The position numbers were made by a program, and so were the translations under genes. The notes below the pieces were generated by a model. That model was not told the origin of the DNA. It was given only the letters and a program-made list of their open reading frames with translations, and did no database searches. DNA of 22,500 bases from Promethearchaeota archaeon (lineage in GTDB: Archaea; Asgardarchaeota; Lokiarchaeia; Sigyniarchaeales; SOKP01): positions 1 to 22,500 of the forward strand of contig SDNY01000056.1 in NCBI GenBank assembly GCA_004524535.1, written 5' to 3'. Positions 1,427-16,771 of this stretch are shown here, one piece after another. How positions within the stretch are numbered: position 1 is the stretch's first letter; each line of letters opens with the position of its first letter.

Positions 1427-3277
1427 TTATATTCCTAATTCATCTAATTTTTCTTTAGTGGGCCAGCCGGTTTCCCAATCCCAACCTCGGAATTGATAAT
1501 AAGTCTTTAAGTTATCTTCTAAATCAACTTTAATCCCAGCTGAACCTCCGGTTTCTAGTGCTTCAGTAACAATTTTAGGTAAATAATCATCCTCTCTTTT
1601 GCATCCAAGCTTGCAAGAGATCAATCTTTTAAGATTTGTAGCTCTTTCGCCTGCTAAAAACAGTTTTTTCTTATTTCCCAAAGAAGAAAATCCAGTAGCG
1701 ACTTTAAGTAATTTCGTTAGAATCGATATGTTAATATGGGGGAAATTACAAATAACTGCGGAATCGAAAATATTACATATATCTTGCAAATTAGCAACTG
1801 AATCTTCCCTGCCATCAATATTAAAACGGTCATCTTTTTTTACTTTCATGAGTGAAGCAGCATCACCATCAATATTAAAGAAATCCCCTTTTTCATGACT
1901 AGCTCCAATACAGCAAGTCATATAAGTTAACGCTTGTCCAAGGTAGGCTCTAGGATCATGCATAGGAATTTCTAATCCCTTTACATGTGCTGCTAAATCG
2001 GGGTCGACACCTAATTTTTCAGCCATAGTTCTTACTCCTTCTGCTAAAATATCTCCTATACCGTCTCTCTTAATAATTTGATTAAGAAGTTTTAAAACTA
2101 CATCCTCATTTCCCCATTTTAATTCTTGTAGTTTAATATCGGTCAAGTATTTGGAAATATTATCAATAGAAATCTTATTTTCAGCCAGATAAATTAAGAA
2201 TGATATTGAAACTCCACTAGAAATAGTATCAATCCCCTCGAGATTACATATATGATTTGCTTTAAGGATAGATTTAAAGTCTAAAATTCCACACATTGGA
2301 CCAAAAGCAGCAGTTGTTTCGTATTCAGGACCATCAATTTCAACTTCTTTCCCATCTATTTCAGCAATTGTAACCTTCCCGCAACCGATGGTACATCCTG
2401 CACAGGCATATTTCAAAACAGGATATTGTTCTTTTAAAGCTTTTCCCGTCAATCGTTCAGCGATAAATTCAGTATTTGTAAAATAATTCGCAGGAACGTC
2501 AGCTAAGACCATTCCCATATCAGTATAACATAAAGTGCCATGATTACTGAAAAATTGTGATGCGAATGCGTTCATTATATTTTTTATAGAGTTTCTTCCA
2601 GTGGTTGCTAGTGTTTCTTTATCAGCATATTCAATTGATTGCCCTCCTTTAACAGCTATTGCTTTTAACTTTTTTTTGCCCATCAGTGCTCCCAAACCAC
2701 AACGACCAGCGGCTCTCCCTTCATCATTAATAATGGCAGCGTATTTTACTAAGTTCTCACCACCCTTCCCTATGCAAGCTATGCGGATTCTATTTTCGTT
2801 AAGATTAGTTCTAATTGTCTCGATTGTTTCTCGAGTATTTTTTCCCCAAATATCATTCGCATCTTTAATTTCAATTTGCCCTTCATTAATAACTATATAT
2901 TTTGGCTGATCAGCTTCTCCAGTTATAACTAAAGCATCAAATCCAGATCTCTTTAAAGCTATGGGAAGAAAACCTCCTGATGTAGCTTCTCCCCAAATGC
3001 CCGTCAAGGGTGATATCCCTGCTACAGAATATCTACTACTGGAGGGGGTAGCTGTTCCTGTTAATGGTCCCGTTGCAAAAACAAGAGGATTAACATTTGC
3101 TAAGGAATCATTTTTTAGAATTTCATAAGCCCCTTCCGAAAGTAAATCATAAATGAGTTTTGCTGATAACCCCACGCCTCCAATATATGCCTCTGCTATA
3201 GTAGGATCTAAATCTTTAATCTCAACTTTTAATTGGTTTAAATCAATATAAGCAATTTTTCCATTATATCCTAACAT
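1427..3277 (-). CDS. aor: Aldehyde:ferredoxin oxidoreductase (tungstopterin AOR family)
   Basis: 616 aa. GYNGKIAYIDL, SPLTG..GEATSGG, GRAAGRCGLGALMGKKKLKAIAV, 4Fe-4S ligands CAGCTIGC plus a distal Cys (AVICNF), GPEYET, CNLEGIDTIS, HVKGLEIPMHDPR, YYQFRGWD. Confidence 0.95.
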   Translation of the reverse strand: MLGYNGKIAYIDLNQLKVEIKDLDPTIAEAYIGGVGLSAKLIYDLLSEGAYEILKNDSLANVNPLVFATGPLTGTATPSSSRYSVAGISPLTGIWGEATSGGFLPIALKRSGFDALVITGEADQPKYIVINEGQIEIKDANDIWGKNTRETIETIRTNLNENRIRIACIGKGGENLVKYAAIINDEGRAAGRCGLGALMGKKKLKAIAVKGGQSIEYADKETLATTGRNSIKNIMNAFASQFFSNHGTLCYTDMGMVLADVPANYFTNTEFIAERLTGKALKEQYPVLKYACAGCTIGCGKVTIAEIDGKEVEIDGPEYETTAAFGPMCGILDFKSILKANHICNLEGIDTISSGVSISFLIYLAENKISIDNISKYLTDIKLQELKWGNEDVVLKLLNQIIKRDGIGDILAEGVRTMAEKLGVDPDLAAHVKGLEIPMHDPRAYLGQALTYMTCCIGASHEKGDFFNIDGDAASLMKVKKDDRFNIDGREDSVANLQDICNIFDSAVICNFPHINISILTKLLKVATGFSSLGNKKKLFLAGERATNLKRLISCKLGCKREDDYLPKIVTEALETGGSAGIKVDLEDNLKTYYQFRGWDWETGWPTKEKLDELGI

Positions 3278-3292
3278 CTTTTCATATTCCTC

Positions 3293-4603
3293 CTATTTAT
3301 AAAACAACTCCATTATATCATCTAATTTATTTTCATATGCTATCTCATACATCCATCGTATTGTTGGCGGATCAAGCTTTCGAGTGGAAGATAATGTTGT
3401 ATAGTCATCAAATGCATATTCCACCATTTGATCCATTTTACTCATATATTCTTCACGAGAAATTTTAGGTTTTTCAAGTTCACTGATGGATAATGGGCAT
3501 CCTACTAATTTCATAAATGCTCTTAATTTTTCCAGTAATTCTCTTAAAATTTCGTCTCGTTGTCTACCTTCTATTTTAATTTTAAAAACTTTAGCAAGAT
3601 CTTTAAATCTATCTGTGGCTTTCGATTGAAAAGCAAGGGATATACTAAGATACAATGCTACGCAAACTCCATGATGAGCATGAAATAAGGCACCAAAAGA
3701 ATGCCCTAAACCATGTTCAACCCCTCCTGAAACATTTCCAAAACCTATTCCAGCAATATATGATCCTAATTGCATCTTTGAACGCGCTTCAAGATCATTT
3801 CCACGTTTTATTGCGCGAGGTAAATAATCTAAGATCATTTGAATTGCCTTAAGATTATTAATGTCAGTATATTCAGTACTCATAGTTAAGACATAAGATC
3901 CCATAGCATGTGCTAATGCGTCCATTCCGGTTCCCATAGTTAAATATGGTGGCATTGTTTTTACAAAATCAGTATGTAATACCACAAAATCAGGACAAAG
4001 CTCATATAAAACAACTTCCGTCTTTTTAGGAGGTTCTCTATCTGTATCAGTTACAACTGCTATAAATGTTGTTTCAGATCCTGTGCCGCTAGTAGTTGGA
4101 ATTGCCGCTAAAATGTACACTTTTTTCCTAAGCCCTAAGTACGAGGGGGCCATTAGATTATTTAAATTTATTTCGGGTTTTTCATATAATAACAAAATCA
4201 TTTTAGCTGTATCCATTGCTGAGCCTCCCCCAATAGCTATTATTGCTTTTGGGTCATATTCATTACAAACCTCAACTGCTTCCATTACAGTGGATCTTGG
4301 AACTTCAGGCAACACATTTGAAAAAATTCTTGAATCGATTTGTTTCATGGTCTTTAATGTTTCTGCAACTTTTTCTCCGAATTTTGGTAAATCTTTATCA
4401 ACAACTAATAATACCCGTTTATCCTCTGCTGATAAAAAGCTACCTAGGTGATTTGCAAAATCTATTAGACTATTCGTTCCAGTAAAGGTTGTCTTTGGAG
4501 AAACTATTGGGCCGTGGTAATTCCTCATCGCATTAGACGACGCCTTGATATATAACGATTTCAAGGATTCCGTCTCATACCAAGCTTTTTGTTGGCTTCC
4601 CAT
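3293..4603 (-). CDS. Iron-containing (type III) alcohol dehydrogenase
   Basis: GGGSAMDTAK, PTTSGTGSET, and metal ligands DALAH / EHGLGH / HHG. Stop codon lies 15 nt before the aor start, so probably one operon. Confidence 0.93.
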   Translation of the reverse strand: MGSQQKAWYETESLKSLYIKASSNAMRNYHGPIVSPKTTFTGTNSLIDFANHLGSFLSAEDKRVLLVVDKDLPKFGEKVAETLKTMKQIDSRIFSNVLPEVPRSTVMEAVEVCNEYDPKAIIAIGGGSAMDTAKMILLLYEKPEINLNNLMAPSYLGLRKKVYILAAIPTTSGTGSETTFIAVVTDTDREPPKKTEVVLYELCPDFVVLHTDFVKTMPPYLTMGTGMDALAHAMGSYVLTMSTEYTDINNLKAIQMILDYLPRAIKRGNDLEARSKMQLGSYIAGIGFGNVSGGVEHGLGHSFGALFHAHHGVCVALYLSISLAFQSKATDRFKDLAKVFKIKIEGRQRDEILRELLEKLRAFMKLVGCPLSISELEKPKISREEYMSKMDQMVEYAFDDYTTLSSTRKLDPPTIRWMYEIAYENKLDDIMELFYK

Positions 4604-4680
4604 ATTTTTATTTTCACTTCCTTTTGTTATAATAAGATATATTTTATACTATCTAAAATGATATACTAGTATTTATTTTA

Positions 4681-4696
4681 ATGTGATTTTTCACAT
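4681..4696. promoter_or_regulatory. Palindrome ATGTGA-N4-TCACAT upstream of adh-aor; candidate operator
   Basis: Perfect 6-bp arms, about 78 nt upstream of the adh ATG, in the 125-nt intergenic region. Confidence 0.4.
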
Positions 4697-4728
4697 ACCA
4701 CAAAGAAAAATATTTAAAACTAAATGTT

Positions 4729-5838
4729 TTAATTCGTCGCAATTTTTTTCAGAGGAATAAACACATCTCTCGGACCTATTCTTTCTAGATGTATGGCTTC
4801 CTCAGGACAAAGATGTGCGCACACGCCGCATCCTATGCATAATTCTTCATTTACTGTTGCGATTGAATCCTCTAAATCAATTGCTTCCAAAGGACACTTC
4901 TCTACGCATGTCCCACAGCCCACACAATCCTCTTCATTCACTCTCGATATGTAAGAACTAATTGTATGTAGTGGTAACACACCTCGATGATACATCCCCA
5001 GAATACCGCAACAACATTTGCAACAATTACATATTGCTTCAATGCCTTTTTTGGGATCGGAATGTATATGAAAAACTTTATGAACAAGACCATAATCTTC
5101 AGCTTCCCTAAAGATTTTCATTGCGTCCTCTTTTGAAATAGGACTTGCAAAGTTACGTTCAATAGCAAATTTAGCGGATTTATCAAAAAGAAAGCAATTC
5201 AATTTTGGAGCGCCTAATTTGCAGGGATCATTAAGAAGATCATGTTGGTGTCTACAATAACAATGCGCAACAGCAATATTATTTTCTTCTTTTTCATAAT
5301 CTTCTAAATATTTTTCTATTTCTTCATAGGGTAACACTACTTCTTGCGGTATCTCCACTTCCTTTTCAACTGGAACGGTTCTATCAACTGCAGGCACTTG
5401 CTTAAATAATTTTGAAACAGACTCATAATTTTTTTGAGATTGAGTGCCTAATTCATCAAATAATTTGTCTGCTAATTCTGCTACTTTTTTATGTTTATCA
5501 TCAGTTAATCCTTTCAATAGCGAATATTCAAAAATTCCGGGGTACGGACCCATAAGACGATAAACCATAATGCCAGTGTTTCTACTTGGAGATCCTAAAA
5601 CTATTCCATTATCCATTAATGCGTTCAACATTTTAAGTATTGCTTCTTTATTCATATCTGTTTTTGCTTTTATCTGCTCCAAAGTTAATGTTGGCTTTTT
5701 ATAGATTAAAAGAAATTTAGCTTGCTCTTCTGTAATTACTGTTTGAAGAAATTCAATCAAAGTATCCGTTATAGGAAAAGGAAAAGCTCCTGCCTTTACA
5801 ATGGTTCTTGCGACTTTATACCATAACTTTTCAGACAT
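4729..5838 (-). CDS. Cys-rich iron-sulfur protein with N-terminal HTH-like region and C-terminal 2x[4Fe-4S] ferredoxin domain
   Basis: Central CYCR..C..C..ICNCCKCCCG cluster; C-terminal CVGCGTCVEKCP and CIGCGVCAHLCP; N-terminal TLEQIKAKT..LNALMDNGIV looks like a winged helix. Confidence 0.88.
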   Translation of the reverse strand: MSEKLWYKVARTIVKAGAFPFPITDTLIEFLQTVITEEQAKFLLIYKKPTLTLEQIKAKTDMNKEAILKMLNALMDNGIVLGSPSRNTGIMVYRLMGPYPGIFEYSLLKGLTDDKHKKVAELADKLFDELGTQSQKNYESVSKLFKQVPAVDRTVPVEKEVEIPQEVVLPYEEIEKYLEDYEKEENNIAVAHCYCRHQHDLLNDPCKLGAPKLNCFLFDKSAKFAIERNFASPISKEDAMKIFREAEDYGLVHKVFHIHSDPKKGIEAICNCCKCCCGILGMYHRGVLPLHTISSYISRVNEEDCVGCGTCVEKCPLEAIDLEDSIATVNEELCIGCGVCAHLCPEEAIHLERIGPRDVFIPLKKIATN

Positions 5839-6068
5839 TATAATTAACTATTTTTATTATATTATTTTCAAAATTAAACTACATAAAATAAAATTACATA
5901 ATTTATTTAAATTGGGACAAGAATTCAAAAACATTTTTTTCCCAAAAAAACTAGCTTTTTAGACATATAATTTTTATAATGCGTCGTTTTTAAAATTTAA
6001 ATATTAATGTGTTTAATAATTTATCATTAACTTAATTATTCAAAATAAATATAAAATCGTGATTAAAA

Positions 6069-6962
6069 ATGTCAGACGAGTTATCAGATAAATTGGTTAT
6101 TAGTGCCGCGTTAGCTGGCGCAGCAACGGTGAAATCTCAAAATGAAAATGTTCCATACACAGCAGAAGAATTTGGGAACGAAGCAAAAAAATGTTACGAC
6201 GCAGGAGCTTCAATTGTTCATATCCACGCCAGAGACCCAGAAAAAGGAAATCCTACCCATGAATTGGATATTATAAAAGCTGTAATAGATGCAATTAAAG
6301 AACGTGCCCCCGGAATTCTTATAAATCTAAGTACTGCAATTTCTCAGGTTGCAACTGAGAAACAAAGAATAAAACCTGTTGAAACATATAAACCACCTCT
6401 CTGCTCACTAAATACAAATTCTATGAACTTTAGTGTAGGCGACCATAAAACTGGGCAAGTGTTACTTGCCCCCACAATGGTTTTTATGAACAATTTCTCA
6501 ATGATTCAAAAGTTTGCTAAAAGAATGAAAAAAGCTCGGTCAAAACCGGAAATAGAAGTGTATGACATGGGAGGTCTTTATAATATCCTTTTCCTTAATA
6601 AACAAGAAGGTTTATTCGATCAACCGCTTCACTTCCAATTTGTATTTGGAGTGCTAGGAGGGATTCCATTTTCCTACCAAAATCTAGCTAGTCTTTTAGC
6701 TCTAAAACCCCCTGATGCTACTTGGAGTGTATGTGGTGTAGCAAAAGATCAGTTTCGAGCAGGAATGTGCGCTTCCGTAATGGGAGGTCATATAAGGGTG
6801 GGTTTAGAAGATAATATCCGAACTATTGATGGTGCATTGGCTAAAGGTTCTTATGAGCAAGTAGAGTGGGCAGCTAAAGTTGCTAAAATAGCAGGACGAG
6901 AAGTAGCTACTCCAGCAGAAGCGGCAGAGATCTTCCATCTACATAAAACAGATGTATATTAA
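6069..6962 (+). CDS. BKACE / DUF849 family beta-keto acid cleavage enzyme (3-keto-5-aminohexanoate cleavage enzyme homolog)
   Basis: ISAALAGA..NENVPYT, Zn ligands HIHARD, KPEIEVYD, FQFVFGV.GG, catalytic HIRVGLEDN, GREVATPAEA. Confidence 0.93.
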   Translation: MSDELSDKLVISAALAGAATVKSQNENVPYTAEEFGNEAKKCYDAGASIVHIHARDPEKGNPTHELDIIKAVIDAIKERAPGILINLSTAISQVATEKQRIKPVETYKPPLCSLNTNSMNFSVGDHKTGQVLLAPTMVFMNNFSMIQKFAKRMKKARSKPEIEVYDMGGLYNILFLNKQEGLFDQPLHFQFVFGVLGGIPFSYQNLASLLALKPPDATWSVCGVAKDQFRAGMCASVMGGHIRVGLEDNIRTIDGALAKGSYEQVEWAAKVAKIAGREVATPAEAAEIFHLHKTDVY

Positions 6963-6982
6963 GAAGCTTTAATTTATTTCAA

Positions 6983-6991
6983 TTTTTTTTT
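6983..6991 (+). terminator. Oligo-T (T9) archaeal-type terminator after the BKACE gene
   Basis: T9 run 20 nt after the stop codon, followed by further T-rich sequence. Confidence 0.5.
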
Positions 6992-7208
6992 ATTTCTTTT
7001 AATAAAATAACATTTATATTTCTCTGAATAAGTATAACTAATTTTAACAATTTGAGTGTTCTCATGTTATAAGTTTTTTATTTTTTTCACTTTTAAATAA
7101 AGATCCAAAAGATGCATATTTTTATTTGAAAGATATATATCATAGAATGTAAAATATTATTCATTAAAAAAAAATAGATATCTAAAAAAAATAAAAGTGT
7201 GAAAGACA

Positions 7209-7685
7209 TTGACATTAAATATAGATGAAGAGCAGGATGTATCTGTCACAAAAGGTATGATACGTGCTGAATTTAACTTTTGGGTCGGAATTGTCATGGA
7301 TAAATTCTATGATGGACTTCAAGAGAAAAAATTTATAGGTACTAAATGCTCTAAATGTGGAAAAGTTTTTCTACCGCCTAGAAATAGATGTGGAGATTGC
7401 TTTGCGAAGGCTGAGGATTTTATTGACTTACCTGAAACTGGTATACTAAAGAATTTTACTGTAACGACTTATAAAATATCTGAGCGAAAAACAAGAAACG
7501 TGAAAAAAGATCAGATCGTAGGATTGGTCCAAATTGATGGAGCAGATAGCGCTATGGTTGTACCAGTTATAAATATAAATCCAGAAGATTTGAAAATAGG
7601 TATGAAATTAAAAGTAGTATGGGCAAAAAATATAAAAGGAGATCCCAATGATATTGCGGGATTTGAGCCAATAGGAGGCGTTTAA
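7209..7685 (+). CDS. DUF35 / ChsH2-C-like Zn-ribbon + OB-fold acyl-CoA-binding protein
   Basis: KFYDGL..IGTKCSKC-x10-CGDC, G.LKNFTV, GLVQIDGAD, LKIGMKLKVVW. TTG start. Ends 2 nt before the next gene. Confidence 0.92.
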   Translation: MTLNIDEEQDVSVTKGMIRAEFNFWVGIVMDKFYDGLQEKKFIGTKCSKCGKVFLPPRNRCGDCFAKAEDFIDLPETGILKNFTVTTYKISERKTRNVKKDQIVGLVQIDGADSAMVVPVININPEDLKIGMKLKVVWAKNIKGDPNDIAGFEPIGGV

Positions 7686-7687
7686 AA

Positions 7688-8818
7688 ATGGATAAAGTAG
7701 CAATAGTAGGTTTTTATCAAGTTAAACCTGGATTAGACTTAATGATGAGCCCTTATGAAATGCTTTTTGAGGCAACAAGAGGGGCATTAGATCATGCTGG
7801 ATTAAAGAGAGACGATTTATCCACCGTAATTGGATGCAATAACGATTATTATGATGGTAAAACTATTTCAAATTGTTTTAAAGTAGAAGCGGGTGGTGCC
7901 TACATGAAGGATGAAAGTAAAGTTGAGATGGATGGGGCTCATGCTGTAATGTATGGACTAATGAGGATCTTATCAGGAAATCATAAATTAGCAATGGTGT
8001 ATGGTATTAGTGCGCCTTCTTGTTTTCCATACGAATCTGTTAGAATTTTAGAAACTGATCCTACGTTCGATCGACCAATCAATCTTTTAAATGGATATAC
8101 CGCAGGGGGAATGCAGATGAGGGCTTATTTAAATGCTTTTGGGCTTTCAGAAGAAGATATCGCTAAAGTTGCTGTATATAATTTAAAAAATGCCGCAAAA
8201 AATCCTTTAGCAATACCAGAAGCTCAAAAAACTAACATAACTGTTGATGAAGTATTAAATTCTGAAATGTTGAGTGCTCCTTTGAAAAAATTAATGTATC
8301 CTATTCTATGTGATGGCGTGACAGCCTTAATTCTTGCTCCAGAAAGGCAGGCTCGTAAAATAACAGATAAACCTGTATGGATTACTGGTGTAGGACACTT
8401 TAACGACACATATTATTTGGGTGATAGAGATTTAAGTAGTTGTTCTTCAATGGAAAAAGCCGCAGAGAAAGCTTATAAAATAGCCGGAATAAATAATCCA
8501 AAAAGCGAAATTAATGTGGCTGAACTCTTTGGACATACTGCCTGTGAAGATTTGATTCTAGCTGAAGCTGCAGGGTTGGCCGATAAAGGAAAAGGCTTAT
8601 CTTTAATTGACACTGGGAAACTTAATCCTTCAGGAGGAACAATGGCAGGATATACTCCTGCTGCAAATGGTTTAACGAGGATTGTAGAGGCTGTGAAACA
8701 AATTCGAGGTGAAGCAGAGGGACATCAAATATCGGGGGCTAATAAAGCAATTGCTTCAGGGCAAGTTGGCTTTTGTGCTCAAAATAATATTGTATATGTT
8801 TTAGAGGGAGGTGAATAA
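7688..8818 (+). CDS. Thiolase-fold protein, Ltp4-like (no nucleophilic Cys); putative retro-aldolase subunit
   Basis: VAIVGF, DYYDG, ESKVEMDGAHA, ETDP, CDG, PVWITG, LGDRDL, NPSGG and C-terminal QNNIVYVLEG recall actinobacterial Ltp4 (ESHVEMDAAWA, QQNLVAVMEG; recalled, not aligned). RBS GGAGG at 7674-7678. Confidence 0.85.
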   Translation: MDKVAIVGFYQVKPGLDLMMSPYEMLFEATRGALDHAGLKRDDLSTVIGCNNDYYDGKTISNCFKVEAGGAYMKDESKVEMDGAHAVMYGLMRILSGNHKLAMVYGISAPSCFPYESVRILETDPTFDRPINLLNGYTAGGMQMRAYLNAFGLSEEDIAKVAVYNLKNAAKNPLAIPEAQKTNITVDEVLNSEMLSAPLKKLMYPILCDGVTALILAPERQARKITDKPVWITGVGHFNDTYYLGDRDLSSCSSMEKAAEKAYKIAGINNPKSEINVAELFGHTACEDLILAEAAGLADKGKGLSLIDTGKLNPSGGTMAGYTPAANGLTRIVEAVKQIRGEAEGHQISGANKAIASGQVGFCAQNNIVYVLEGGE

Positions 8819-8823
8819 TAAAA

Positions 8824-10068
8824 ATGGCTAATGTACAACCAGCAGTAATAAGTGCTGGTTTTTGTGAACATGCATCAAAACGTTCTGATGTAAATATGGC
8901 TGAATTGGTAAACGAAGCTGTTGAAGATTGTTTAAATAAAGCTGGATCTGTTGAATGGAAAGATATTGATTATGTGATAAATGGTAATATGCCTGCTTTT
9001 GAGGGTGCTAATATGCCAGAATTATGGATGACAGATCATATGGCTGCTAAAAATAAACCCCTTTTAAGGGTTACAACAGGTGGAACTACTGGCGGCTCAG
9101 TATTTGTCTCAGGCTACTATGCCGTCGCTTCGGGATTATATGATATGGTTTTAGCGGTTGCTTTCGAACAACAATCCTGCGGGAATACTACAGTAGGATT
9201 AGCTTCTGTGGCATTAGGCGAATTATCTATTTACCCTAGTTTAGGTTATGAAGCCACCAGATTAAGAAGAAATATGGGTGCTGGTGCTGCTATTGGTGTT
9301 GCATCATACCAGGCGATGAATTATATGAGAAGAAGTAAAGCTACTGAAGAAGATTTAGCCCGCGTTGTTGTACAAAATAGAAGAAATGCCGCAAAAAATT
9401 GGTGGACCCATCTAAAGATGCCAACTATTACAATTGAAGATGTGTTAGATACACCGTACATTTCATATCCTTTAAGATTTGGGATGGTATGTCCTGCATC
9501 CGATGGGGCCTGTGCTGTATTATTTACAACCGAAGAAAAAGCAAAACAAATAGCCGATGTACCTGTATATATTAACGGCGTTGGCAGTTATGCTAATGAA
9601 CCTGCAATCATAGGCGTTGATTGTGGTGGGGCTGGGCAAACTGATCCGTGTGAACAATTAGGAGCCGTAAAATCAGCCGAACTTGCTTATAGCCAAGCGG
9701 GTATTTCTTTCCCAAATAAAGAAATCGACTATGCGGAAGTGTATTCTCCATTTCCAAATCAAGAATTGCAGTGGGTTGAAAGAGTTGGTTTATTTGAGCC
9801 AAATTCTGCTCCCGAAGCTTACTTAAATGGAGTTACTGCTCTTAATGGTGAAATGCCAGTGAACTGTTCTGGTGGAGTAAATTCTACAAACGCAATTGGT
9901 GCTTCTGCGATGGAAAGACCTGCTGAATCTGCCCTGCAAATTATGGGTAAAGCGGGAAATCAAGTTCCTAAGACTGTACACACTGCTTTAGGACATGGCT
10001 GGGGGGGCGCAATAAATTTAATAAGCCACGTTGTTATGGCAGATGAGCCACAACGTAAATTTAAATGA
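8824..10068 (+). CDS. Thiolase-fold protein, Ltp3-like (Cys to Gly; Tyr at the HDxF His position); putative retro-aldolase subunit
   Basis: KRSDVNMAELV, FEGANMPELWM, KPLLRVTTGGTTGGS, CPASDGACAV, EIDYAEVYSPF, PVNCSGGVNSTNAIGAS, ALGHGWGG recall Ltp3 (FEGVMMPELFM, AEIYVPF, NPIGAS; recalled). RBS GGAGGTGA at 8807-8814. Confidence 0.88.
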   Translation: MANVQPAVISAGFCEHASKRSDVNMAELVNEAVEDCLNKAGSVEWKDIDYVINGNMPAFEGANMPELWMTDHMAAKNKPLLRVTTGGTTGGSVFVSGYYAVASGLYDMVLAVAFEQQSCGNTTVGLASVALGELSIYPSLGYEATRLRRNMGAGAAIGVASYQAMNYMRRSKATEEDLARVVVQNRRNAAKNWWTHLKMPTITIEDVLDTPYISYPLRFGMVCPASDGACAVLFTTEEKAKQIADVPVYINGVGSYANEPAIIGVDCGGAGQTDPCEQLGAVKSAELAYSQAGISFPNKEIDYAEVYSPFPNQELQWVERVGLFEPNSAPEAYLNGVTALNGEMPVNCSGGVNSTNAIGASAMERPAESALQIMGKAGNQVPKTVHTALGHGWGGAINLISHVVMADEPQRKFK

Positions 10069-10083
10069 GGTGTTAAAAAAAAA

Positions 10084-10602
10084 ATGCCATTACCAGAATA
10101 TATCAAGAAGGATTACAAAAGAACAAGAACAATGAAGGGAAGCTGGTATTTAACGAGTTACAAATACAAATTCAATTTATCACGGATTAAAGAGTATTTA
10201 AAAGGACTTAAGAATGGAATACTTCTTGGATTAAAATGTAGATCATGTAATACCGTCTCTTTCCCTCCAAGACTGATTTGTGGGAGATGTTTAGTAAAAC
10301 CAGATCAATGGGTTCGATTACCTGAAACTGCTTCAATAGCGACTGGTTCTGCGAACTACGACGAAGAAGATAAAAAAAGAGAACATCCCTTTCCAGTAAT
10401 AGCCGTTCGCCAAGATGGTGCGGATACTGCATTAATCCATAACATTTCTGACGATGTTGATTTTAATTCGATTTATATAGGAATGCCATTAAAAGTCGTA
10501 TGGGCTAAAGAAAGAAACGGTTTATATTTGGATATCGATCATTACGAGCCAATAGAAGACCCAGCAATCGAACTGAACAAAAAAGAAGGAAGCGTCGATT
10601 AA
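10084..10602 (+). CDS. DUF35 Zn-ribbon + OB-fold protein
   Basis: YLKGL..ILLGLKCRSC-x10-CGRC, VRQDGADT, IGMPLKVVW. RBS GAGGTG at 10067-10072 overlaps the upstream TGA. Confidence 0.92.
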   Translation: MPLPEYIKKDYKRTRTMKGSWYLTSYKYKFNLSRIKEYLKGLKNGILLGLKCRSCNTVSFPPRLICGRCLVKPDQWVRLPETASIATGSANYDEEDKKREHPFPVIAVRQDGADTALIHNISDDVDFNSIYIGMPLKVVWAKERNGLYLDIDHYEPIEDPAIELNKKEGSVD

Positions 10603-10625
10603 ATAATAATAATAATAATAATAAT
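10602..10625 (+). repeat. (AAT)8 microsatellite immediately after the stop codon
   Basis: Eight perfect AAT units. Confidence 0.9.
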
Positions 10626-10626
10626 A

Positions 10627-10700
10627 TTTTTTTTTATATTTCTTTTTCTTGGTAATAAATCTTATAAAAAAAGATTAAAAAAAGAAAAGTTTTTTAAATT
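10627..10700. terminator. Convergent termination region (T-tracts on both strands)
   Basis: T9 at 10627-10635 on +; A-runs around 10666-10688 read as T-tracts on -. Lies between convergent operons. Confidence 0.5.
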
Positions 10701-10702
10701 AT

Positions 10703-11305
10703 TTAGAATGTAAAACCATCTGGTAGATCTGATTCTTTAGTTCCTTCAGCTACAAACATTAAATCCATTATTGTATATGTTGGGCTTTTAGTCCTAAAAA
10801 TTGGGATTATTTTTTTTCCAATTTCAGGTTCTCCAACCGAAAGAACGCTCATCAAGATCGTTACGACTTCCTCATCAAATTCAACATTCACGAATTTAAT
10901 TGGTTTTGGAAGTGTATTAAAGGCACCCGACCTCTCTGTAATAATGAATGAATGGATTTTAGCAGTTTTTCGAGCTTTTTCAGTAATATCTACGGGTTTA
11001 GCTTTTCTAAGACAATCAGGACAATAGATTCTAAATGGTTCAAAAATCGATCCTTTAGAATCACATTTTTCATTATCACATCTAGAAGCCATAAGCTTTC
11101 CCTTACCGAGAGATTCGAAGAATATTGCCTCACCACCATAAGAATGAATATAGGTCATATCTCTTGGGTTAGTCACACCAGCTAATTTTCCAGTATCTTT
11201 ATTAAAAATTGGCTGATTTTTTTCAATAACATGGAATGTTCCTCTTGGTTTGTATCTACCATTAACGACATCCACATATCCTTTTTCATCATCTGTTTTT
11301 GGCAT
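10703..11305 (-). CDS. DUF35-like Zn-ribbon + OB-fold protein with N-terminal extension
   Basis: HSYGGEAIFFESL..LMASRC-x4-C-x13-CPDC, IHSFI, FVNVEF, PEIG..IIPIF. Starts 4 nt after the thiolase stop, with a GGAGG RBS. Confidence 0.85.
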   Translation of the reverse strand: MPKTDDEKGYVDVVNGRYKPRGTFHVIEKNQPIFNKDTGKLAGVTNPRDMTYIHSYGGEAIFFESLGKGKLMASRCDNEKCDSKGSIFEPFRIYCPDCLRKAKPVDITEKARKTAKIHSFIITERSGAFNTLPKPIKFVNVEFDEEVVTILMSVLSVGEPEIGKKIIPIFRTKSPTYTIMDLMFVAEGTKESDLPDGFTF

Positions 11306-11309
11306 TTTT

Positions 11310-12731
11310 TTAGTCCTCCTTTAATAATTTATTCGGATTCATTAAAATTGTACATGTTACATGGGAACCTACACCGGCATGGCTTATTGCTAAACCACGG
11401 TTTGCATCCTTTACTTGTAAGCTCGTCCAATCAGAGGGCTTTTCTCGTCCAAAAGCATCCCATTTTTCTTGGGGTTCATGGATTTCATCCCATCGATTCC
11501 AGATATGATATCCAATTTCGGCAATCTGCATTAATCCTGTCGCTCCTACTGCATGCATACAACCAATCAAACCACCAGAAGGATTGCTTGGTAATGCCCC
11601 TGGTTTATTTGTATTTGGATTAATTACATATGCATCACCAGACTCTATATAATCTCTTCCCTGTCCATAGGGGCGGATACCTATATCTTCATATGTTTGG
11701 ATATCACTTATTGTAAATGCATCATGGAGCTCCACAACATCAAGATCATCAGTGGGATCAACCACACCAGCCATACGATAAGCATACCATGCAGCCATTC
11801 GAGCAGCCAAGAAACCAGTAAATCCAGGATATCTGTCTGCACCAGGGAATTCTTTTGCTAAATTATCATATTGTCCTGGTTTTTCATTAGGTAAGAGTGG
11901 GATCTTCATATTTCTTCGATCAGCAACTCTCAATGTATGACTGCCTGCTGCGATATAAATTCTAAGAGGGTTATTAGTAATCTCATATGCTGTTTTTTCA
12001 TCACATACAATGCCACATGCAGCTCCAACGCTCATTAAACAACAATCGAGCGCACGGAGAGGTGCTGCTACTATCGGAGAGTTAATCACATCATCTACTG
12101 TTATCTTCATTGGACCATGAGCATGTGGGTTCATTCTCGCATAACCACGATTTTTAACGGCTACTTCTGCCATAGTTTTCCTGAAAGATTCCTCTTCCTT
12201 TCCAAAAATTTTCCAATATCTTTGAGCCATTACAGCATAATACCCTGTGTAAATGTGCCCCAATGGTGTTTCCCAATCCTTATCAGCCGCACAAGATATA
12301 AGATGATTCCCTTCATCAGTTGGAACTTCATCCATTCTTTCCCATCCTAAAGCAAGTGCACAATCACTATATCCTGAAGCAACTGCCTTAACAGCTTCCC
12401 ACATAGCGGATCCTCCTGTTGCTCCACCTGTCTTCACACCAATAGTTCCCAATGGATCAAGACCTAATCTATCATGGATTACAGCTTCTCCTAATAATTG
12501 ATCACCAAAATGATCAGCAAAATGTCCATAATAACACGTGTGAATGTAACTCTTTAACTCCGCAGGAGTCATGTTAACAAAATCGCTAGCAGCAGTTAAT
12601 GCATCAATACATAATTCTTCTGTTCTTGTCTCCGGAAACGCACGATCAAATTTTGACATTCCAACTGTCGCTAAATATACTGGTCTCATCAGTTTAGGTA
12701 TTTTTAACTGTTTCTCACTAAATTTTATCAT
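11310..12731 (-). CDS. Thiolase-domain protein of the archaeal GGATGG subfamily (PRK06365-like), lacking the nucleophilic Cys
   Basis: DHFGDQLL, GVKTGGATGGSA, YTGYYAVMA, LDCCLMS, PLLPNE, ELHDAF, IQTYED, NPSGGLIGCMHAVGATG, SHAGVG. Confidence 0.9.
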   Translation of the reverse strand: MIKFSEKQLKIPKLMRPVYLATVGMSKFDRAFPETRTEELCIDALTAASDFVNMTPAELKSYIHTCYYGHFADHFGDQLLGEAVIHDRLGLDPLGTIGVKTGGATGGSAMWEAVKAVASGYSDCALALGWERMDEVPTDEGNHLISCAADKDWETPLGHIYTGYYAVMAQRYWKIFGKEEESFRKTMAEVAVKNRGYARMNPHAHGPMKITVDDVINSPIVAAPLRALDCCLMSVGAACGIVCDEKTAYEITNNPLRIYIAAGSHTLRVADRRNMKIPLLPNEKPGQYDNLAKEFPGADRYPGFTGFLAARMAAWYAYRMAGVVDPTDDLDVVELHDAFTISDIQTYEDIGIRPYGQGRDYIESGDAYVINPNTNKPGALPSNPSGGLIGCMHAVGATGLMQIAEIGYHIWNRWDEIHEPQEKWDAFGREKPSDWTSLQVKDANRGLAISHAGVGSHVTCTILMNPNKLLKED

Positions 12732-12800
12732 TTTTTTTCACATTTAACTCATTTTCATAGATATAATTTAATATTGATTACATTTTATGATTATAAATAA

Positions 12801-12862
12801 TATTGAGTTTTGTTTCATATTAATTTTATAAATTTCTATATCTATTATTGAGTTATGTCAAT
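12801..12862. promoter_or_regulatory. Repeated TATTGAGTTWTGT motif and ATTGA-N6-TCAAT inverted repeat in a divergent promoter
   Basis: tattgagttttgt at 12801-12813 and tattgagttatgt at 12846-12858. The second copy extends to ATTGAGTTATGTCAAT (12847-12862). Confidence 0.4.
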
Positions 12863-12934
12863 TTATTTATGCTTAAATTGATTTTTTAACTTAGAATTAA
12901 ATATTTATAATTTAAAATTTAAAATTGAGGTATT

Positions 12935-14269
12935 ATGGACACTAGACTAAGAGATTTTGAAGAAATTAGAATTCAAAAATATGTACCTGAATTAGACCTA
13001 TTAGCAAATCCTTTACTTACTCCTCAAGAGAAAGAATTTTTATCGGATTTTTACGATTTTTTAGAAAGAGATCTTGATAAAGATTTAAAGATGTTAGAGG
13101 AACTCGATTATTTCGTTGAGGAACCTACTCAAGAGAAAAAAAAAGAAATTGTTATTAAAATTTTAAAGAAGTTAGCTGATAACGGTTATTATAGCACAAT
13201 TCTGAACGATGAAGATTTTGAAGTTGGAAGAATTACGAGAAATGTACTTATCGCTTATGCATTATGTGGGGGGAGATGGAGTGAGTCGAGCGAACGATAT
13301 GTTGCAGGAAATTATAGTGTCGAAATGGGACGTCTTGCAGGAGGGACATTATATTGTAATCCAGTCAATTATAGAGCAACTGAGCAACAAAAAGAAAGAT
13401 TTCTATATCCCGTTGCCAAAGATGGGGCTCCTGCGTCATCAGCCATGACTGAATTTAATGCTGGAAGCGATATATCAAGAATGGAATTAAATATTCAATT
13501 AAAGGATGATAAAGCAATTCTTAAAGGTAAAAAAGTCTTTATTACAAATGGCATGTTCGCTGATTATATAATTGTCTATGGAAGAATAAACAATGGTCCC
13601 TTAGGAGCTATTATAGTTGATACTGAACATCAACAATTAAGGGATTTTAAATCAGCTAGAATAAGAACTTATGGAATGACTGATGCTTTCGTATGTAGAT
13701 TGAACTTTGATAGAGTAGAACAGCCTATAGAGAATATGCTTCATGGAAATGGATTAGATATCGCATTTCACCAGCTAACAGAAGAAAGATTAGTTATTAG
13801 CGCTGAAGCTTTAGGAGATGCTATGAAAAAGCTTTTATATTCTCATACATATGCACTTCATCGTAGACAATTTGAGAGGCGTTTGCATGAATATCAAGTT
13901 ATAAGATTCCCAATCTCTAAAAACATAAGGGAAATGAATTTATTAGTTTCTACATTGATAAATTATGCAAGAGAGTTAGATCGACGACCAGAACTTGCGA
14001 ATTCTAAATTAATGGCAGCTCAAGCAATGGGACTTAAAATATCTAGTACAGAGCTTGGTTTCGAAAGTGCAATACATTGCTTCAGGACAATGGGCGGTCG
14101 CGGGTTCATTAGGCAATATTCCAATCCAATTGGATTACTCGACCCTTACTGTATGATTCATGGTGGGGGGTCCAATTATGTGCTCGAAGATAGTGAATCA
14201 AGAAGATACTTCAAGTATAAACCCACAAGAAGAGAAATTGAGGATATTATCCCCAGAATTGATTTATAA
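12935..14269 (+). CDS. Acyl-CoA dehydrogenase family protein
   Basis: AMTEFNAGSD, LKGKKVFITNG, LTEERL, RRQFERRLHEYQVI, MGGRGF, IHGGGSN. GAGGT just upstream of the ATG. Confidence 0.92.
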   Translation: MDTRLRDFEEIRIQKYVPELDLLANPLLTPQEKEFLSDFYDFLERDLDKDLKMLEELDYFVEEPTQEKKKEIVIKILKKLADNGYYSTILNDEDFEVGRITRNVLIAYALCGGRWSESSERYVAGNYSVEMGRLAGGTLYCNPVNYRATEQQKERFLYPVAKDGAPASSAMTEFNAGSDISRMELNIQLKDDKAILKGKKVFITNGMFADYIIVYGRINNGPLGAIIVDTEHQQLRDFKSARIRTYGMTDAFVCRLNFDRVEQPIENMLHGNGLDIAFHQLTEERLVISAEALGDAMKKLLYSHTYALHRRQFERRLHEYQVIRFPISKNIREMNLLVSTLINYARELDRRPELANSKLMAAQAMGLKISSTELGFESAIHCFRTMGGRGFIRQYSNPIGLLDPYCMIHGGGSNYVLEDSESRRYFKYKPTRREIEDIIPRIDL

Positions 14270-14459
14270 GTGTTTTTCTTACTTTCATTTTTATTTAAAA
14301 TTATTACTTTATAAATTATTAAATAGATCTTCTTAATTTAGTGATAAAAAGGTTAATATTTATTATAATTAAAAAATTAATATTAAAACGAGAAAAATTA
14401 ATAGAGTAATTATAAATGCTATAACATGAAATTTCAATTAAAACCTTAAAGTTGAGATT

Positions 14460-16688
14460 ATGGAAGAAAAGAAACCATTAAATGAAAATGATACATCAGA
14501 CCAAGAAAATTTAGAGAAAGAAAGACTTGAGAAAGAACGAATGGAAAAAGAGCGAATGGAGAAAGAACGAATTGAAAAAGAACGAATAGAGAAAGAAAGA
14601 TTGGATAAGGAGAGATTAGAGAGAGAAAAACAAGAACAGTTTAAAAAGCAAAATCGACTTATCAGTAATAATATGATTTTTATAATCCCTAGTTGGGGGG
14701 ATTTATTAGGGTATCCCACATTAGGTAAATACGTTGGTCAGGATGTAACAAAGGTCATTAATGACGTTGTAATCTTTTTTGGTGGCACTGAATGTGCTGT
14801 TGAAACTGAAAAAGGAACGAATTATTTCATTTTTGGATTAGGATATTACTATGTCAAATTTGAATTACCTCATGATGTTGAAATGTCTCGAGGAAAATTT
14901 ATTGTTGATAGTCGACTACTTACAGGATTGATCTTATCTGATTTTGTCTATGATCATCTCGCCTCTTCAAAAGATGTTACATTAGAAGATGATAAAGATG
15001 TAGTTATTGCAGAAAAAGGAGTAAAAATACCAATTGATCTTTCCTTTAAATCAAGGGGTCGGAAAACTCTTATTAAGGGAGCTATTACGAGAAATATTTT
15101 TACTCGATATAAGAATATCTTCTTAGAGTTTATGGATAAAATTCGCGATCCAGAAACTTATAAATTAGATACTCAAGGACATTTACTTCTAAGCGGTTGT
15201 CGAGACTTTTACAATAAAATAATTGTGGATAATAAAATGAAAGTTCATGGATCTAGTGAATATATGGAAGAAACAGCGGGATTAGATGAAATTATATATG
15301 GTGTTGATGAATACATTCCCAAAATCTTTTCTCCAATAGAACTTCAAAAAATCGGGGAAGTAATTACTGATTTAAAGAATACTTATGCCACAATTGACTA
15401 TGATCCCATGTATCCCTACTCAATTTTAAAAAATATCTCTAAAATCTTAAAGTCTGAAACCACTCCTATTTCTTTGTTAGAACCCTCATCAGATTCTCCT
15501 TTATCACTTAAAAAATCTGTATTATTTTCAGCTGAAAATAGTTTAAGCTCAATGGTTGACTGGCCAAATGAATTTCCAAGAAAAATAAAAGAGGAGCCTT
15601 CTGTAAGTCCTATTACAAGACCCATCGATATTACTTCTCAAAAAGTTGATCCTTCCACAATTAGAGATTATCGAGAACCCCAAAGAGAAGAAGAGCAATT
15701 TAAATTAAGTTTTGAGAAATCTGAAAAAGTTGAAGCGAAACCACTCCCTCCAATGCCTAAAGAAGATATTGAACAAATTTTATTATATCTTAGGAGGATC
15801 ATCGAAGAAAATTTTGACATGCCCTCTATAGGAAGAGCATTCGGACTGGCACGGGATACAATAAGAAGCATACATCCTGTTGAATATCCTAAACTTAAAT
15901 GGGAATTAAGTAGAGAGGCAAACATCTACGAGAAAAAACAACCTTTATTTACCCTTCCGCCAAGAGATAAAAAGGAATTACTAGAAGGAATCGGTAAATG
16001 GATAAATAAATTTGAAAAGGAGAGATTAGAAAAAGAGAGAAAAGAGAGAGAGGAAAGGGAGAGACTTGAAAAAGAGCGACTAGAAAAAGAGAGAAAAGAG
16101 AGAGAGGAAAAAGAGCGACTAGAAAAAGAGCGAAAAGAGAGAGAGGAAAAGGAGCGACTTGAAAAAGAGAGAAAAGAGAGAGAGGAAAAGGAGCGACTTG
16201 AAAAAGAACGACTAGAAAAAGAGAGACTTGAAAAGGAGCGATTAGAAAAAGAGCGACTTGAAAAAGAGCGACTTGAAAAAGAGCGACTTGAAAAAGAGCG
16301 ATTAGAAAAAGAGCGAATTGAAAAAGAAAAGCAAAAATTGGAAGAAGAAAGAAAAGAAAGAGAACGATTAGAAAAACTTAGAGAAGAACAAGAAAGAATT
16401 AAAAAACAAAGAGAACAAGAAAAAATTGAGGCTGAAAGGCAAGAACAGCTAAGAATTGAGCAAGAAAGCTTAGAAAAAGAGAAGCTAGAGAGAGAGGCTC
16501 TTGAAAAAGATAAAATCGAATTAAAAAAATTAAAGGCAAAAAAGAAACAGCAAGCAAAGTTATTAAAACAGAAGAAAAAACAAGAAAAGAAATTAGAAAA
16601 GCAAAAAGCGAAACTTGCAAAAAAGAAGGCTAAAGAAAAAGAAGAACTTGCCAAGTTAAAACAAGAATATGAGTCTATGGAAGAATAA
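14460..16688 (+). CDS. Hypothetical protein with N- and C-terminal EKERL (ER/K) charged-helix repeats
   Basis: 742-aa ORF: short repeat block, globular region, Pro/Ser-rich linker, helical domain, then about 224 aa of Pro/Gly-free E/K/R-rich tail ending in a Lys-rich segment. Confidence 0.88.
14514..14618 (+). repeat. 7 x 15-bp coding repeat, [ED]KER[LMI]
   Basis: [35 protein letters not shown], with synonymous variation between units. Confidence 0.9.
16014..16319 (+). repeat. Coding tandem repeats: [13 protein letters not shown] composite units followed by 9 x 15-bp EKER[LI]
   Basis: Four EKERKERE blocks interleaved with EKERL (39-bp period), then nine 15-bp units at 16185-16319. Three consecutive units at 16245-16289 are identical (gaaaaagagcgactt). 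Confidence 0.92.
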
Positions 16689-16771
16689 CTTATTCTAAAA
16701 AAATTTTTTATTGTTATTATAAATCATCAGAGAATTGATTTTTAAATAATTTTTTTTAATTATTATAAACA

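Follow-up and report, generated by a model that had tools for sequence, protein, structure and literature searches.

We describe a conserved module of four genes (DUF35a, Ltp4-like, Ltp3-like and DUF35b) at positions 7209-10602 of a 22,500-nucleotide (nt) stretch of contig SDNY01000056.1 from Promethearchaeota archaeon (GCA_004524535.1); this whole stretch is called the window, and coordinates given without another label are positions in it. The module is distantly related to the bacterial Ltp3/Ltp4 set, known as sterol side-chain aldol-lyases, and its products probably cleave a carbon-carbon bond of a coenzyme A (CoA) ester other than that of a sterol. The two middle proteins, both with a thiolase fold, have lost the thiolase catalytic triad, and the four genes stand in the same order in other genomes of the phylum and in uncultured bacteria. 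An earlier note on the same DNA had compared the operon to the actinobacterial sterol side-chain module and had pointed to its two separate DUF35 genes; this reading goes too far in proposing a sterol substrate and in taking the split DUF35 genes for a novelty.

Layout and conservation of the module

The list of open reading frames (ORFs) confirms four co-oriented genes on the plus strand, separated by gaps of 2, 5 and 15 nt, as the earlier note had stated. DUF35a (7209..7685) encodes 158 amino acids (aa) when read from TTG and matches both Pfam models that make up DUF35, zf-ChsH2 (E 2e-10) and OB_ChsH2_C (E 1.4e-6); the two were found in both small proteins. It is followed by the Ltp4-like thiolase-fold protein (7688..8818, 376 aa; Thiolase_C_1 E 3.2e-19, Thiolase_N E 1.3e-4, under the cut-off), the Ltp3-like thiolase-fold protein (8824..10068, 414 aa; Thiolase_C_1 E 3.1e-24, Thiolase_N E 6.7e-11) and DUF35b (10084..10602, 172 aa; zf-ChsH2 E 2.3e-8, OB_ChsH2_C E 1.8e-4 at 21.8 bits against a cut-off of 27.1). 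Shine-Dalgarno-like sites (GGAGG, GGAGGTG and GAGGTG, respectively) stand 8-13 nt 5' of the ATGs of genes 2, 3 and 4, and no clear site of this kind was found on reading the sequence upstream of the TTG at 7209. DUF35a may start at this TTG or at an alternative ATG at 7257; the alignment with the nearest orthologue begins at residue 1. Judging from the letters, an AT-/T-rich tract 3' of the last stop (10603..10660, plus strand) is a possible archaeal terminator.

Searching 301 sampled genomes of the phylum with the Ltp3-like protein gave a match at E <= 1e-60 in 68 genomes and a copy at 70% identity or more in 55, some of which carry two such copies. By family, these copies occur in 52 of the 69 genomes of the archaeon's own family (the window genome included) and in 3 of the 19 genomes of one other. 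All four genes were present in identical order in 16 of 19 short Asgard loci, the remaining three being cut by locus or contig ends or falling below the 45% identity print filter, and in 14 of 14 loci of 20 kb from other genomes of the phylum. This four-gene arrangement is not due to chance. Across orthologous loci the Ltp3-like protein is the most conserved (72-93% identity), followed by the Ltp4-like protein (56-87%) and the two DUF35 proteins (41-83%). Publicly named near-identical proteins include one from "Candidatus Hodarchaeota archaeon" at 93% identity and many others from Promethearchaeia/Promethearchaeota, which places the window in an Asgard archaeon.

When the Ltp3-like protein was searched against 1.84 billion cluster representatives, 3698 proteins were retrieved at E <= 0.001, and all Asgard orthologues fell into one 50% cluster. 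The nearest non-Asgard relative is the P0125 cluster (46% identity, 411 aa), the named members of which are uncultured Actinomycetota metagenome-assembled genomes, and after it come many further relatives at 35-44% identity, including Streptomyces P0131 (41%; 704.5 bits on PRK08313). The order DUF35, Ltp4-like, Ltp3-like, DUF35 was seen in 25 of 50 metagenome loci of this sister clade, the rest being cut by contig ends. The separate flanking DUF35 genes described by the earlier note are therefore real, but they are not specific to Asgard archaea.

Paralogous modules exist as well. Locus L109 (G141:C6:60000-79999, 5982-17481), from the same genus, carries three modules of an Ltp4-type gene, an Ltp3-type gene and two DUF35 genes in tandem, with a gene for a beta-keto acid cleavage enzyme (BKACE) between two of them; the two extra modules are more distant paralogues with the order Ltp4-type, Ltp3-type, DUF35, DUF35. 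The window's genome has a single module of this type, as opposed to the three in the genome of L109. It also has 11 thiolase-like and 8 DUF35 ORFs, and every DUF35 ORF adjoins a thiolase-like gene. In every module examined, including the two further ones of L109, the Ltp3-type and Ltp4-type genes are adjacent. The module is part of a large, old family of paired cysteine-less thiolase-fold proteins in bacteria and archaea.

Active-site residues and kinship with Ltp3/Ltp4

Residue positions were taken from HMMER alignments to solved thiolases (6esq and others). The Ltp3-like protein has Gly87 where thiolases have the nucleophilic Cys, Y307-S-P-F in place of the HDCF motif and Asn356 in place of the GHP His. 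The Ltp4-like protein has a short deletion at the Cys, which leaves a shortened nucleophile loop reading E-M-D-G-A, and it has F281-G-H-T at HDCF and Y322 at the GHP His. The thiolase triad (nucleophilic Cys, HDCF and GHP His) is thus replaced in both middle proteins, and neither core subunit is capable of thiolysis, because the nucleophilic cysteine is gone.

The replacements in the Ltp3-like protein are strongly conserved: five residues, G87, H196, E305, Y307 and N356, are the same in all 28 aligned rows, whose identity goes down to 33%. Within the Ltp3-type clade of a FastTree phylogeny (40 rows), no row has Cys at the nucleophile column, and the HDCF-His column holds Tyr in 32 rows, the HDCF-Cys column Pro in 28 and the GHP-His column Asn in 36. 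Rows of the Ltp4-type clades in this tree are variable at the nucleophile, HDCF and GHP columns. In the Ltp4-like alignment D82 (25 of 25 rows) and E279 are invariant, and F281, H283 and Y322 vary even within 13 Asgard orthologues, the last position being Tyr in 3, Asn in 5, Phe in 2 and Asp in 3.

A precedent for these residues comes from the aldolases Ltp2 and Sal. According to the available text of PMC12329534, the Tyr at the first place of YDHF (Ltp2) or YDCY (Sal), motifs that stand in place of HDCF, is the catalytic base, and Gly occupies the place of the lost nucleophile. The Ltp3-like protein shares both features, with Gly at the lost nucleophile and Y307 at the place of the base; the Ltp4-like protein has F281 there. 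Asn356 is expected at or near the position of Ltp2 Tyr344. At the level of whole sequences, Ltp2 (6ok1) is weakly similar to the window proteins (E 6.1e-13 and 1.6e-10).

Other thiolase-like proteins of the same genome look different. Six further paralogues retain the nucleophilic Cys, and one canonical thiolase (C165:57885-59108), in which Cys, HDCF and GHP are all present, adjoins a 449-aa ORF with C-terminal DUF35 domains, the pair being at C165:57885-60424. PF08540 (HMG_CoA_synt_C), from the family of 3-hydroxy-3-methylglutaryl-CoA (HMG-CoA) synthase, gave no match in the genome, with the controls detected in only 4 of 14 genomes; since these controls show a poor fit to the archaeal enzymes, we replaced the model by TIGR00748, that of the archaeal HMG-CoA synthase. 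The latter scores 110.8 bits (cut-off 353) on C165, overlapping the DUF35 ORF and running through two stop codons, which may represent a synthase-DUF35 fusion marking the entry module of the mevalonate pathway. As the canonical thiolase and this HMG-CoA-synthase-like/DUF35 ORF stand together on C165, the mevalonate module would lie elsewhere in the genome; within the window, Pfam found no HMG-CoA synthase gene adjacent to the thiolase/DUF35 genes.

Among NCBIfam families, the Ltp3-like protein fits PRK08313 (NF006180) best, with 358.7 bits against a cut-off of 514 and 197.6 for the next family. The Ltp4-like protein reaches 193.1 bits on PRK07937 (NF005924; cut-off 419), level with PRK06066 (195.6). 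As a reference for Ltp3 and Ltp4 we used Streptomyces proteins that exceed the NCBIfam cut-offs; when the genome collection was scanned with the PRK08313 member from Streptomyces, the 80 loci kept were all from that genus. In one of these, L037, an ORF (2996-3934) with two OB_ChsH2_C stretches and one zinc ribbon, the four-cysteine (C4) ribbon being in the second half only, stands ahead of two genes whose products belong, in this order, to PRK07937 (569.6 bits, cut-off 419) and PRK08313 (710.8, cut-off 514). The same locus has an acyl-CoA synthetase (PRK07798, 735.9 bits), encoded on the opposite strand, and an enoyl-CoA hydratase that passes PRK07799 and scores 373.8 bits on the EchA19 model (cut-off 400). 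By its gene content, L037 follows the fadD19/echA19/tandem-DUF35/ltp4/ltp3 pattern. Its link to Rv3521-Rv3523 rests on family names, on synteny with the EchA19-like gene and on one table in PMC6429209, in which Rv3521 is a conserved hypothetical protein, Rv3522 is ltp4 and Rv3523 is ltp3.

The likeness between the two systems extends to the active sites. The Streptomyces Ltp3-family protein reads HTAGSVG, YVPF and N-P at the three sites, and the window's Ltp3-like protein shows the matching cysteine-less signature (Gly, Y-x-P-F, Asn); the nucleophile loop is EMDGAHA in the Ltp4-like protein and EMDGAWA in the Streptomyces Ltp4-family protein, both of which are encoded directly upstream of an Ltp3-type gene. 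Two DUF35 domains accompany the pair in both cases, and the ligase and hydratase genes near Asgard modules parallel the Streptomyces synthetase and EchA19-like genes. The systems differ in that the Asgard DUF35 domains are two flanking genes, both with a C4 ribbon, whereas the Streptomyces ones are fused upstream with a ribbonless first half. They differ also in that the Asgard host is of an anaerobic type, in which the few tests made gave no hint of steroid catabolism, and in that the Asgard modules have BKACE and FabK-like neighbours.

An IQ-TREE quick tree of 99 rows, from which 11 fragmentary or long-branch rows, 27 canonical-clade rows and 9 redundant Asgard rows had been dropped, places 88 rows in a cysteine-less clade (Shimodaira-Hasegawa approximate likelihood-ratio test, SH-aLRT, 99). 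It divides into an Ltp4-type (40 rows, 98) and an Ltp3-type clade (44 rows, 96), with 4 further rows as a small group. The Ltp3-type and Ltp4-type clades each contain a window protein and a Streptomyces protein, and a FastTree phylogeny of 146 rows agrees. At finer resolution the archaeal and Streptomyces proteins separate. The Ltp3-like protein lies in an 8-row clade (99) of Asgard rows with P0125 as sister (SH-aLRT 99), and the Streptomyces Ltp3 row, the only verified Ltp3 (PRK08313) member in the tree, lies in a separate 3-row clade (99), the two being joined in a 28-row clade (96). The Ltp4-like protein lies in a 9-row clade (99) and its Streptomyces counterpart in a 3-row clade (97), both within a 16-row clade of weaker support (90). 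Partners from one module occupy corresponding regions of the Ltp3-type and Ltp4-type clades, as expected if the pairs evolve together.

Because their scores are below the cut-offs and they form separate subclades, the window proteins are relatives rather than strict members of Ltp3 and Ltp4. The resemblance proposed by the earlier note thus holds for the parts, for their order relative to tandem-DUF35/ltp4/ltp3 and for the cysteine-less signatures, but not for membership proper, and the placement of the window proteins in well-supported subclades of their own, apart from the Streptomyces rows, counts against the strict form of the claim.

Proposed assembly and reaction

We consider it fairly likely that the four proteins form a heteromeric retro-aldolase acting on a hydroxyacyl-CoA, possibly a branched one, in which the Ltp3-like protein would be catalytic, the Ltp4-like protein structural and the two DUF35 proteins staples. 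The four genes would then give one complex, the core of which would be a heterodimer of two SCP2-thiolase-fold proteins flanked by two distinct DUF35 zinc-ribbon/OB proteins, one per subunit. Such a heterodimer would require two different DUF35 proteins, and two DUF35 domains do accompany every complete Ltp3/Ltp4-type module examined. DUF35a, which precedes the Ltp4-like gene in all 14 loci, carries a C-x2-C-x10-C-x2-C motif and its orthologues form a 7-row clade (SH-aLRT 98); DUF35b keeps the C4 motif and its orthologues form their own 7-row clade (SH-aLRT 99). A deep DUF35 tree resolved no match between either Asgard DUF35 and the halves of the Streptomyces tandem protein.

A heteromer of the Ltp3-like and Ltp4-like proteins, which the earlier note had suggested, is plausible on structural modelling. 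The heterodimer model reached a score of 0.95, compared with 0.00 for the best control; 58 of 80 solved complexes come up to the mark, as do 2 of 110 mismatched pairs. Since thiolase dimers have already been solved, the model may pass by its likeness to them. The runs agree in at least 89% of contacts, the partner has a predicted local distance difference test score (pLDDT) of at least 93, and the modelled interface is the usual thiolase dimer face. As a single chain, the Ltp3-like protein is modelled with an SCP2-thiolase fold (mean pLDDT 84.2).

The proposed arrangement mirrors the solved DUF35-aldolase-aldolase-DUF35 arrangement of Ltp2-ChsH2 (6OK1) and Sal-Shy, as far as the accessible portion of PMC12329534 describes them: in Sal, a central dimer is flanked by two DUF35 domains. 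These systems also lack the nucleophilic Cys, have Tyr first in the motif replacing HDCF and use a zinc-ribbon DUF35 partner. They differ in being homodimers with one kind of DUF35 fused to a hydratase, whereas the window would encode a heterodimer with two free-standing DUF35 proteins. The archaeal thiolase/DUF35 complexes (6ESQ/6ET9; Saci_1121/1120) share the fold and the neighbouring DUF35 gene and are among the nearest solved structures, but they keep the catalytic Cys and His residues, which the window pair has lost, and they are homodimers with one DUF35 instead of two DUF35 genes.

In this complex the Ltp3-like protein would be the likely catalyst, with Tyr307 at the place of the base Tyr of Ltp2 and Sal, plus Asn356 and His196, and the Ltp4-like protein, degenerate at the active-site places, would probably shape only the pocket and the dimer. 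The most likely reaction would be the cleavage, by retro-aldol chemistry, of a 3-hydroxyacyl-CoA to acetyl- or propionyl-CoA and an aldehyde, a ketone or a beta-keto acid, of use where ordinary oxidation and thiolysis are blocked, for example by a branched carbon. The substrate would be supplied by an acyl-CoA ligase, an acyl-CoA dehydrogenase and an enoyl-CoA hydratase, which are encoded beside the module in relatives. The co-occurrence of ligase, hydratase and dehydrogenase genes, with no 3-hydroxyacyl-CoA dehydrogenase seen among the annotated neighbours, fits a route resembling beta-oxidation in which a retro-aldol step replaces oxidation and thiolysis.

Several points weigh against a retro-aldolase. 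The Ltp3-like protein lacks the second catalytic residue of the known aldolases (His and Tyr344 in Ltp2, Cys304 in Sal), having Pro309 where Ltp2 has His and Sal has Cys304, and Asn356. The solved structures nearest to its model are archaeal thiolases and thiolase-like proteins (7yvy, 4yzo, 6et9), Ltp2 6ok1 coming only at rank 12; all SCP2-type structures in this fold search have template modelling scores (TM-scores) of 0.72-0.84 (query-normalised), so that aldolase is not separated from thiolase. The literature found holds no assay of any heteromer or enzyme of the Ltp3/Ltp4 type, and the label of aldol-lyase for Ltp3 and Ltp4 rests on genetics, by way of a citation in the available part of PMC6273163. 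Pfam found no hydratase or ligase within the window, and the neighbour sets differ between genomes: among 14 wider Asgard loci, where neighbours are only partly annotated, a ligase occurs in 5, a FabK-like NMO-family reductase in 6, BKACE in 4 and an enoyl-CoA hydratase in 3. The FabK-like enoyl reductase would suit a reductive, biosynthetic route no less than a breakdown route.

A more specific form of the retro-aldolase proposal, which we regard as rather unlikely, would make the module the key step of an oxygen-free breakdown of beta- or methyl-branched acyl chains, such as isoprenoid acids from archaeal lipids, in Asgard archaea and some sediment bacteria. A ligase would produce the CoA ester, an acyl-CoA dehydrogenase or CrtI-like desaturase together with a hydratase would produce a tertiary 3-hydroxyacyl-CoA that could not be oxidised, and the Ltp3-like/Ltp4-like/DUF35 complex would split it by retro-aldol cleavage. 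The carbonyl product would then pass to BKACE, if it is a beta-keto acid, or to aldehyde:ferredoxin oxidoreductase. This route is hinted at by BKACE beside the module, by a CrtI-like pair with a hydratase (3 of 14 loci) and by a branched-chain phenotype as the family's only genetic data, as given in the accessible text of PMC6273163. No carboxylase or other branch-specific gene was seen among the neighbours, and no search aimed at acyl-CoA carboxylases was made. If the substrate were a branched or isoprenoid-derived acid, the module would bear on lipid recycling by sediment archaea.

The direction of the reaction is one point on which other explanations depart from cleavage. The same complex could form a bond instead, adding an acetyl-CoA enolate to an aldehyde or ketone in a thiolase-independent chain extension whose product is then dehydrated and reduced. 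A FabK-like enoyl reductase gene lies directly upstream and co-oriented in L118, L119 and L120 and is adjacent in L112 and L115, a zinc-dependent medium-chain dehydrogenase/reductase is encoded 3' of the module in the latter two loci, and genes for aldehyde:ferredoxin oxidoreductase and iron alcohol dehydrogenase stand less than 6 kb away in the window, with similar genes (55% and 46% identity) about 6.6 kb from the module in L111. Aldol additions are, moreover, generally favourable. Yet acyl-CoA dehydrogenases and ligases of the breakdown type are equally frequent neighbours, and the only genetic data on the family, in the part of PMC6273163 available, concern breakdown; direction is not readable from sequence, and we hold bond formation to be unlikely. 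Alternatively, both thiolase-fold proteins might lack activity altogether and provide other enzymes with a scaffold or carrier, given that all canonical catalytic residues are lost in both and that DUF35 complexes are known scaffolds (available text of PMC12329534 and of 10.1101/2024.07.05.601840). This is very unlikely in view of the five invariant residues in the active-site region of the Ltp3-like protein, which is also the most conserved product of the operon and has Tyr307 at the catalytic-base place of solved aldolases.

An archaeal ketothiolase/DUF35 pair that forms or splits acetoacetyl- or ketoacyl-CoA in the course of mevalonate or fatty acid synthesis is what the public annotation of these proteins (acetyl-CoA C-acetyltransferase or thiolase-domain protein) would imply, and a thiolase/DUF35 complex does act in Sulfolobus fatty acid synthesis, according to the accessible text of 10.1101/2024.07.05.601840. 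We judge it highly improbable: with Cys and the HDCF and GHP histidines gone in both proteins, a ping-pong thiolase mechanism would have no nucleophile, and canonical thiolases are encoded elsewhere in the genome, one of them beside the HMG-CoA-synthase-like/DUF35 ORF. Least probable of all is an Ltp3/Ltp4 orthologue that removes the C24 branch of sterol side chains, or acts on a similar hopanoid or steroid. Here the parts and the order of the thiolase-fold genes are the same, the families in question are the best or joint-best NCBIfam matches, and small SCP2 sterol-carrier-domain proteins are encoded near the module in 3 of 14 loci. The available text of PMC6273163 calls Ltp3 and Ltp4 aldol-lyases required for branched, not straight, sterol side chains, and in the literature found these sterol genes are the only family members with any functional data. 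The scores of the window proteins, however, are far below the curated cut-offs and the subclades are separate; the genome, rated 99.11% complete, has no EchA19-family match above the cut-off (best 183.3 against 400) and no match to KshA_C, a weak test for an anaerobe. No steroid-specific gene was seen in this thin test, in which kstD, acmB, atc and ipdAB were not searched for, and the genes around the module encode acyl-CoA enzymes of a general kind. There is thus no support for the sterol or hopanoid substrate that the earlier note suggested. Orthologues in 55 of 301 genomes, in two copies in some, and the two distant modules of L109 look more like a family with many substrates, as is also suggested by several paralogous modules per genome and the wide host range.

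The loss of the thiolase residues has consequences for how such genes are counted. Multiple thiolase/DUF35 pairs were reported in 67% of 62 Asgard genomes and linked to fatty acid synthesis (10.1101/2024.07.05.601840), and in the available part of that text the cysteine-less heteromeric pairs are not set apart from thiolase/DUF35 pairs. Since the window pair cannot be a thiolase, pair counts of this kind, which have been used to argue for Asgard fatty acid synthesis, and metabolic reconstructions need care. We found no paper on the module in Asgard archaea; supplements (the trees and tables of the Schmerling preprint, the alignments of PMC12329534) lay outside the search and may list the proteins. 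One candidate, 10.64898/2026.07.15.738315, was set aside as a DUF35 paper, its match being to DUF3592. With four separate, small, soluble-looking and highly conserved proteins, the Asgard version is a good candidate for a first structure and assay of this type of enzyme.

Genomic neighbourhood

A BKACE gene (6069..6962, plus strand; Pfam BKACE E 8.2e-90) lies 246 nt upstream of the module and is co-oriented with it; its best NCBIfam match is 3-keto-5-aminohexanoate cleavage enzyme (257 bits, cut-off 382). BKACE occurs within about 2 kb of the module in the 4 Asgard loci counted above and directly upstream in the metagenome locus L157, and it is possibly linked to the module in function. Contigs from RNA libraries (4 runs from 3 studies), 88-99% alike, match stretches of each of the four module genes, and single contigs bridge the DUF35a/Ltp4-like junction (7249-7821; 7390-8466) and the Ltp4-like/Ltp3-like junction (8671-8854); we do not count them as expression, because contigs in RNA libraries do not demonstrate transcription. 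Positions 6905-7085 are uncovered by such contigs, which carries no evidential weight. DNA runs besides the likely source contain 0.22-0.43 of the sampled words, and their record labels are mostly sediment metagenomes.

On the other side, an acyl-CoA dehydrogenase-like gene (12935..14269, plus strand; Pfam Acyl-CoA_dh_M and Acyl-CoA_dh_1) is a possible pathway partner. Its orthologue is present in L109 (92.6% identity), and acyl-CoA dehydrogenases flank the module in the window, L109, L114 and L157. The acyl-CoA ligases near Asgard modules are of one family, with an extra AMP-binding gene in L120. In L118 and L119 the FabK-like reductase, DUF35a, Ltp4-like, Ltp3-like, DUF35b and ligase genes follow one another on one strand with short gaps, the ligase of L118 scoring 522.3 bits on PRK06187 (cut-off 476). 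In L111 a ligase and an enoyl-CoA hydratase lie 3' of the module, and in L157 a ligase-like gene, two acyl-CoA dehydrogenase genes, BKACE and the module share one strand.

Two further kinds of gene recur in 3 of 14 loci each. A GntG-family aldolase, threonine-type and dependent on pyridoxal phosphate (366.9 bits, cut-off 230), is encoded directly beside the module at L111:13498-14553, L113:8063-9115 and L114:8150-9205, and a fragment of it lies at window positions 1-348. A flavoprotein of the CrtI/carotenoid-isomerase family, which scores 138.6 bits on the phytoene desaturase family model against a cut-off of 238.1, forms a pair with a ferredoxin-reductase-like protein at L111:3205-5946, L113:12732-15509 and L114:17262-19999, the pair occurring with enoyl-CoA hydratase near the module; it gives a faint hint of isoprenoid-like substrates.

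Divergent from BKACE and the module, the minus strand at 1427-5838 encodes an aldehyde:ferredoxin oxidoreductase, an iron-type alcohol dehydrogenase and a 369-aa protein that ends in a 2x[4Fe-4S] domain. Parts of this set are found near the module in L109 and L111, with distant relatives (33-34% identity) in L121 and L122, and the set could take up an aldehyde product. The stretch 10703-12731, also on the minus strand, holds two genes. One encodes a third thiolase-like protein (473 aa), which at 668.6 bits narrowly misses the PRK06365 cut-off of 695, has no nucleophilic Cys (KTGGATG) and retains both histidines. The other, its 200-aa downstream neighbour, matches OB_ChsH2_C only marginally in Pfam (E 0.092) and appears in an iterative search as a DUF35 relative (E 2.5e-25) with no C4 zinc ribbon.

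The P0125 modules of Actinomycetota and metagenomes resemble the window's in flanking order, similar length and sister position and, in L157, in the BKACE gene upstream; they differ in a guanine-cytosine content of 45-66% (28 contigs of at least 9 kb measured) and in that many lie beside an unrelated block of genes. This block of similar-sized ORFs (L164:193-5884; L125, L133, L134, L136, L142, L146) is in its sole annotated copy, that of L164, a phosphate ABC transporter with a PhoR/PhoB-type two-component system; we considered it as a functional clue and dismissed it, no functional link being seen. Towards the end of the window, a 742-aa ORF (14460-16688, plus strand) with no Pfam match at E <= 0.1 stands within a region of strong AT skew (0.318 in 15001-16500) and is followed by an RNase H-like/family B polymerase exonuclease-like gene (16772-17737).

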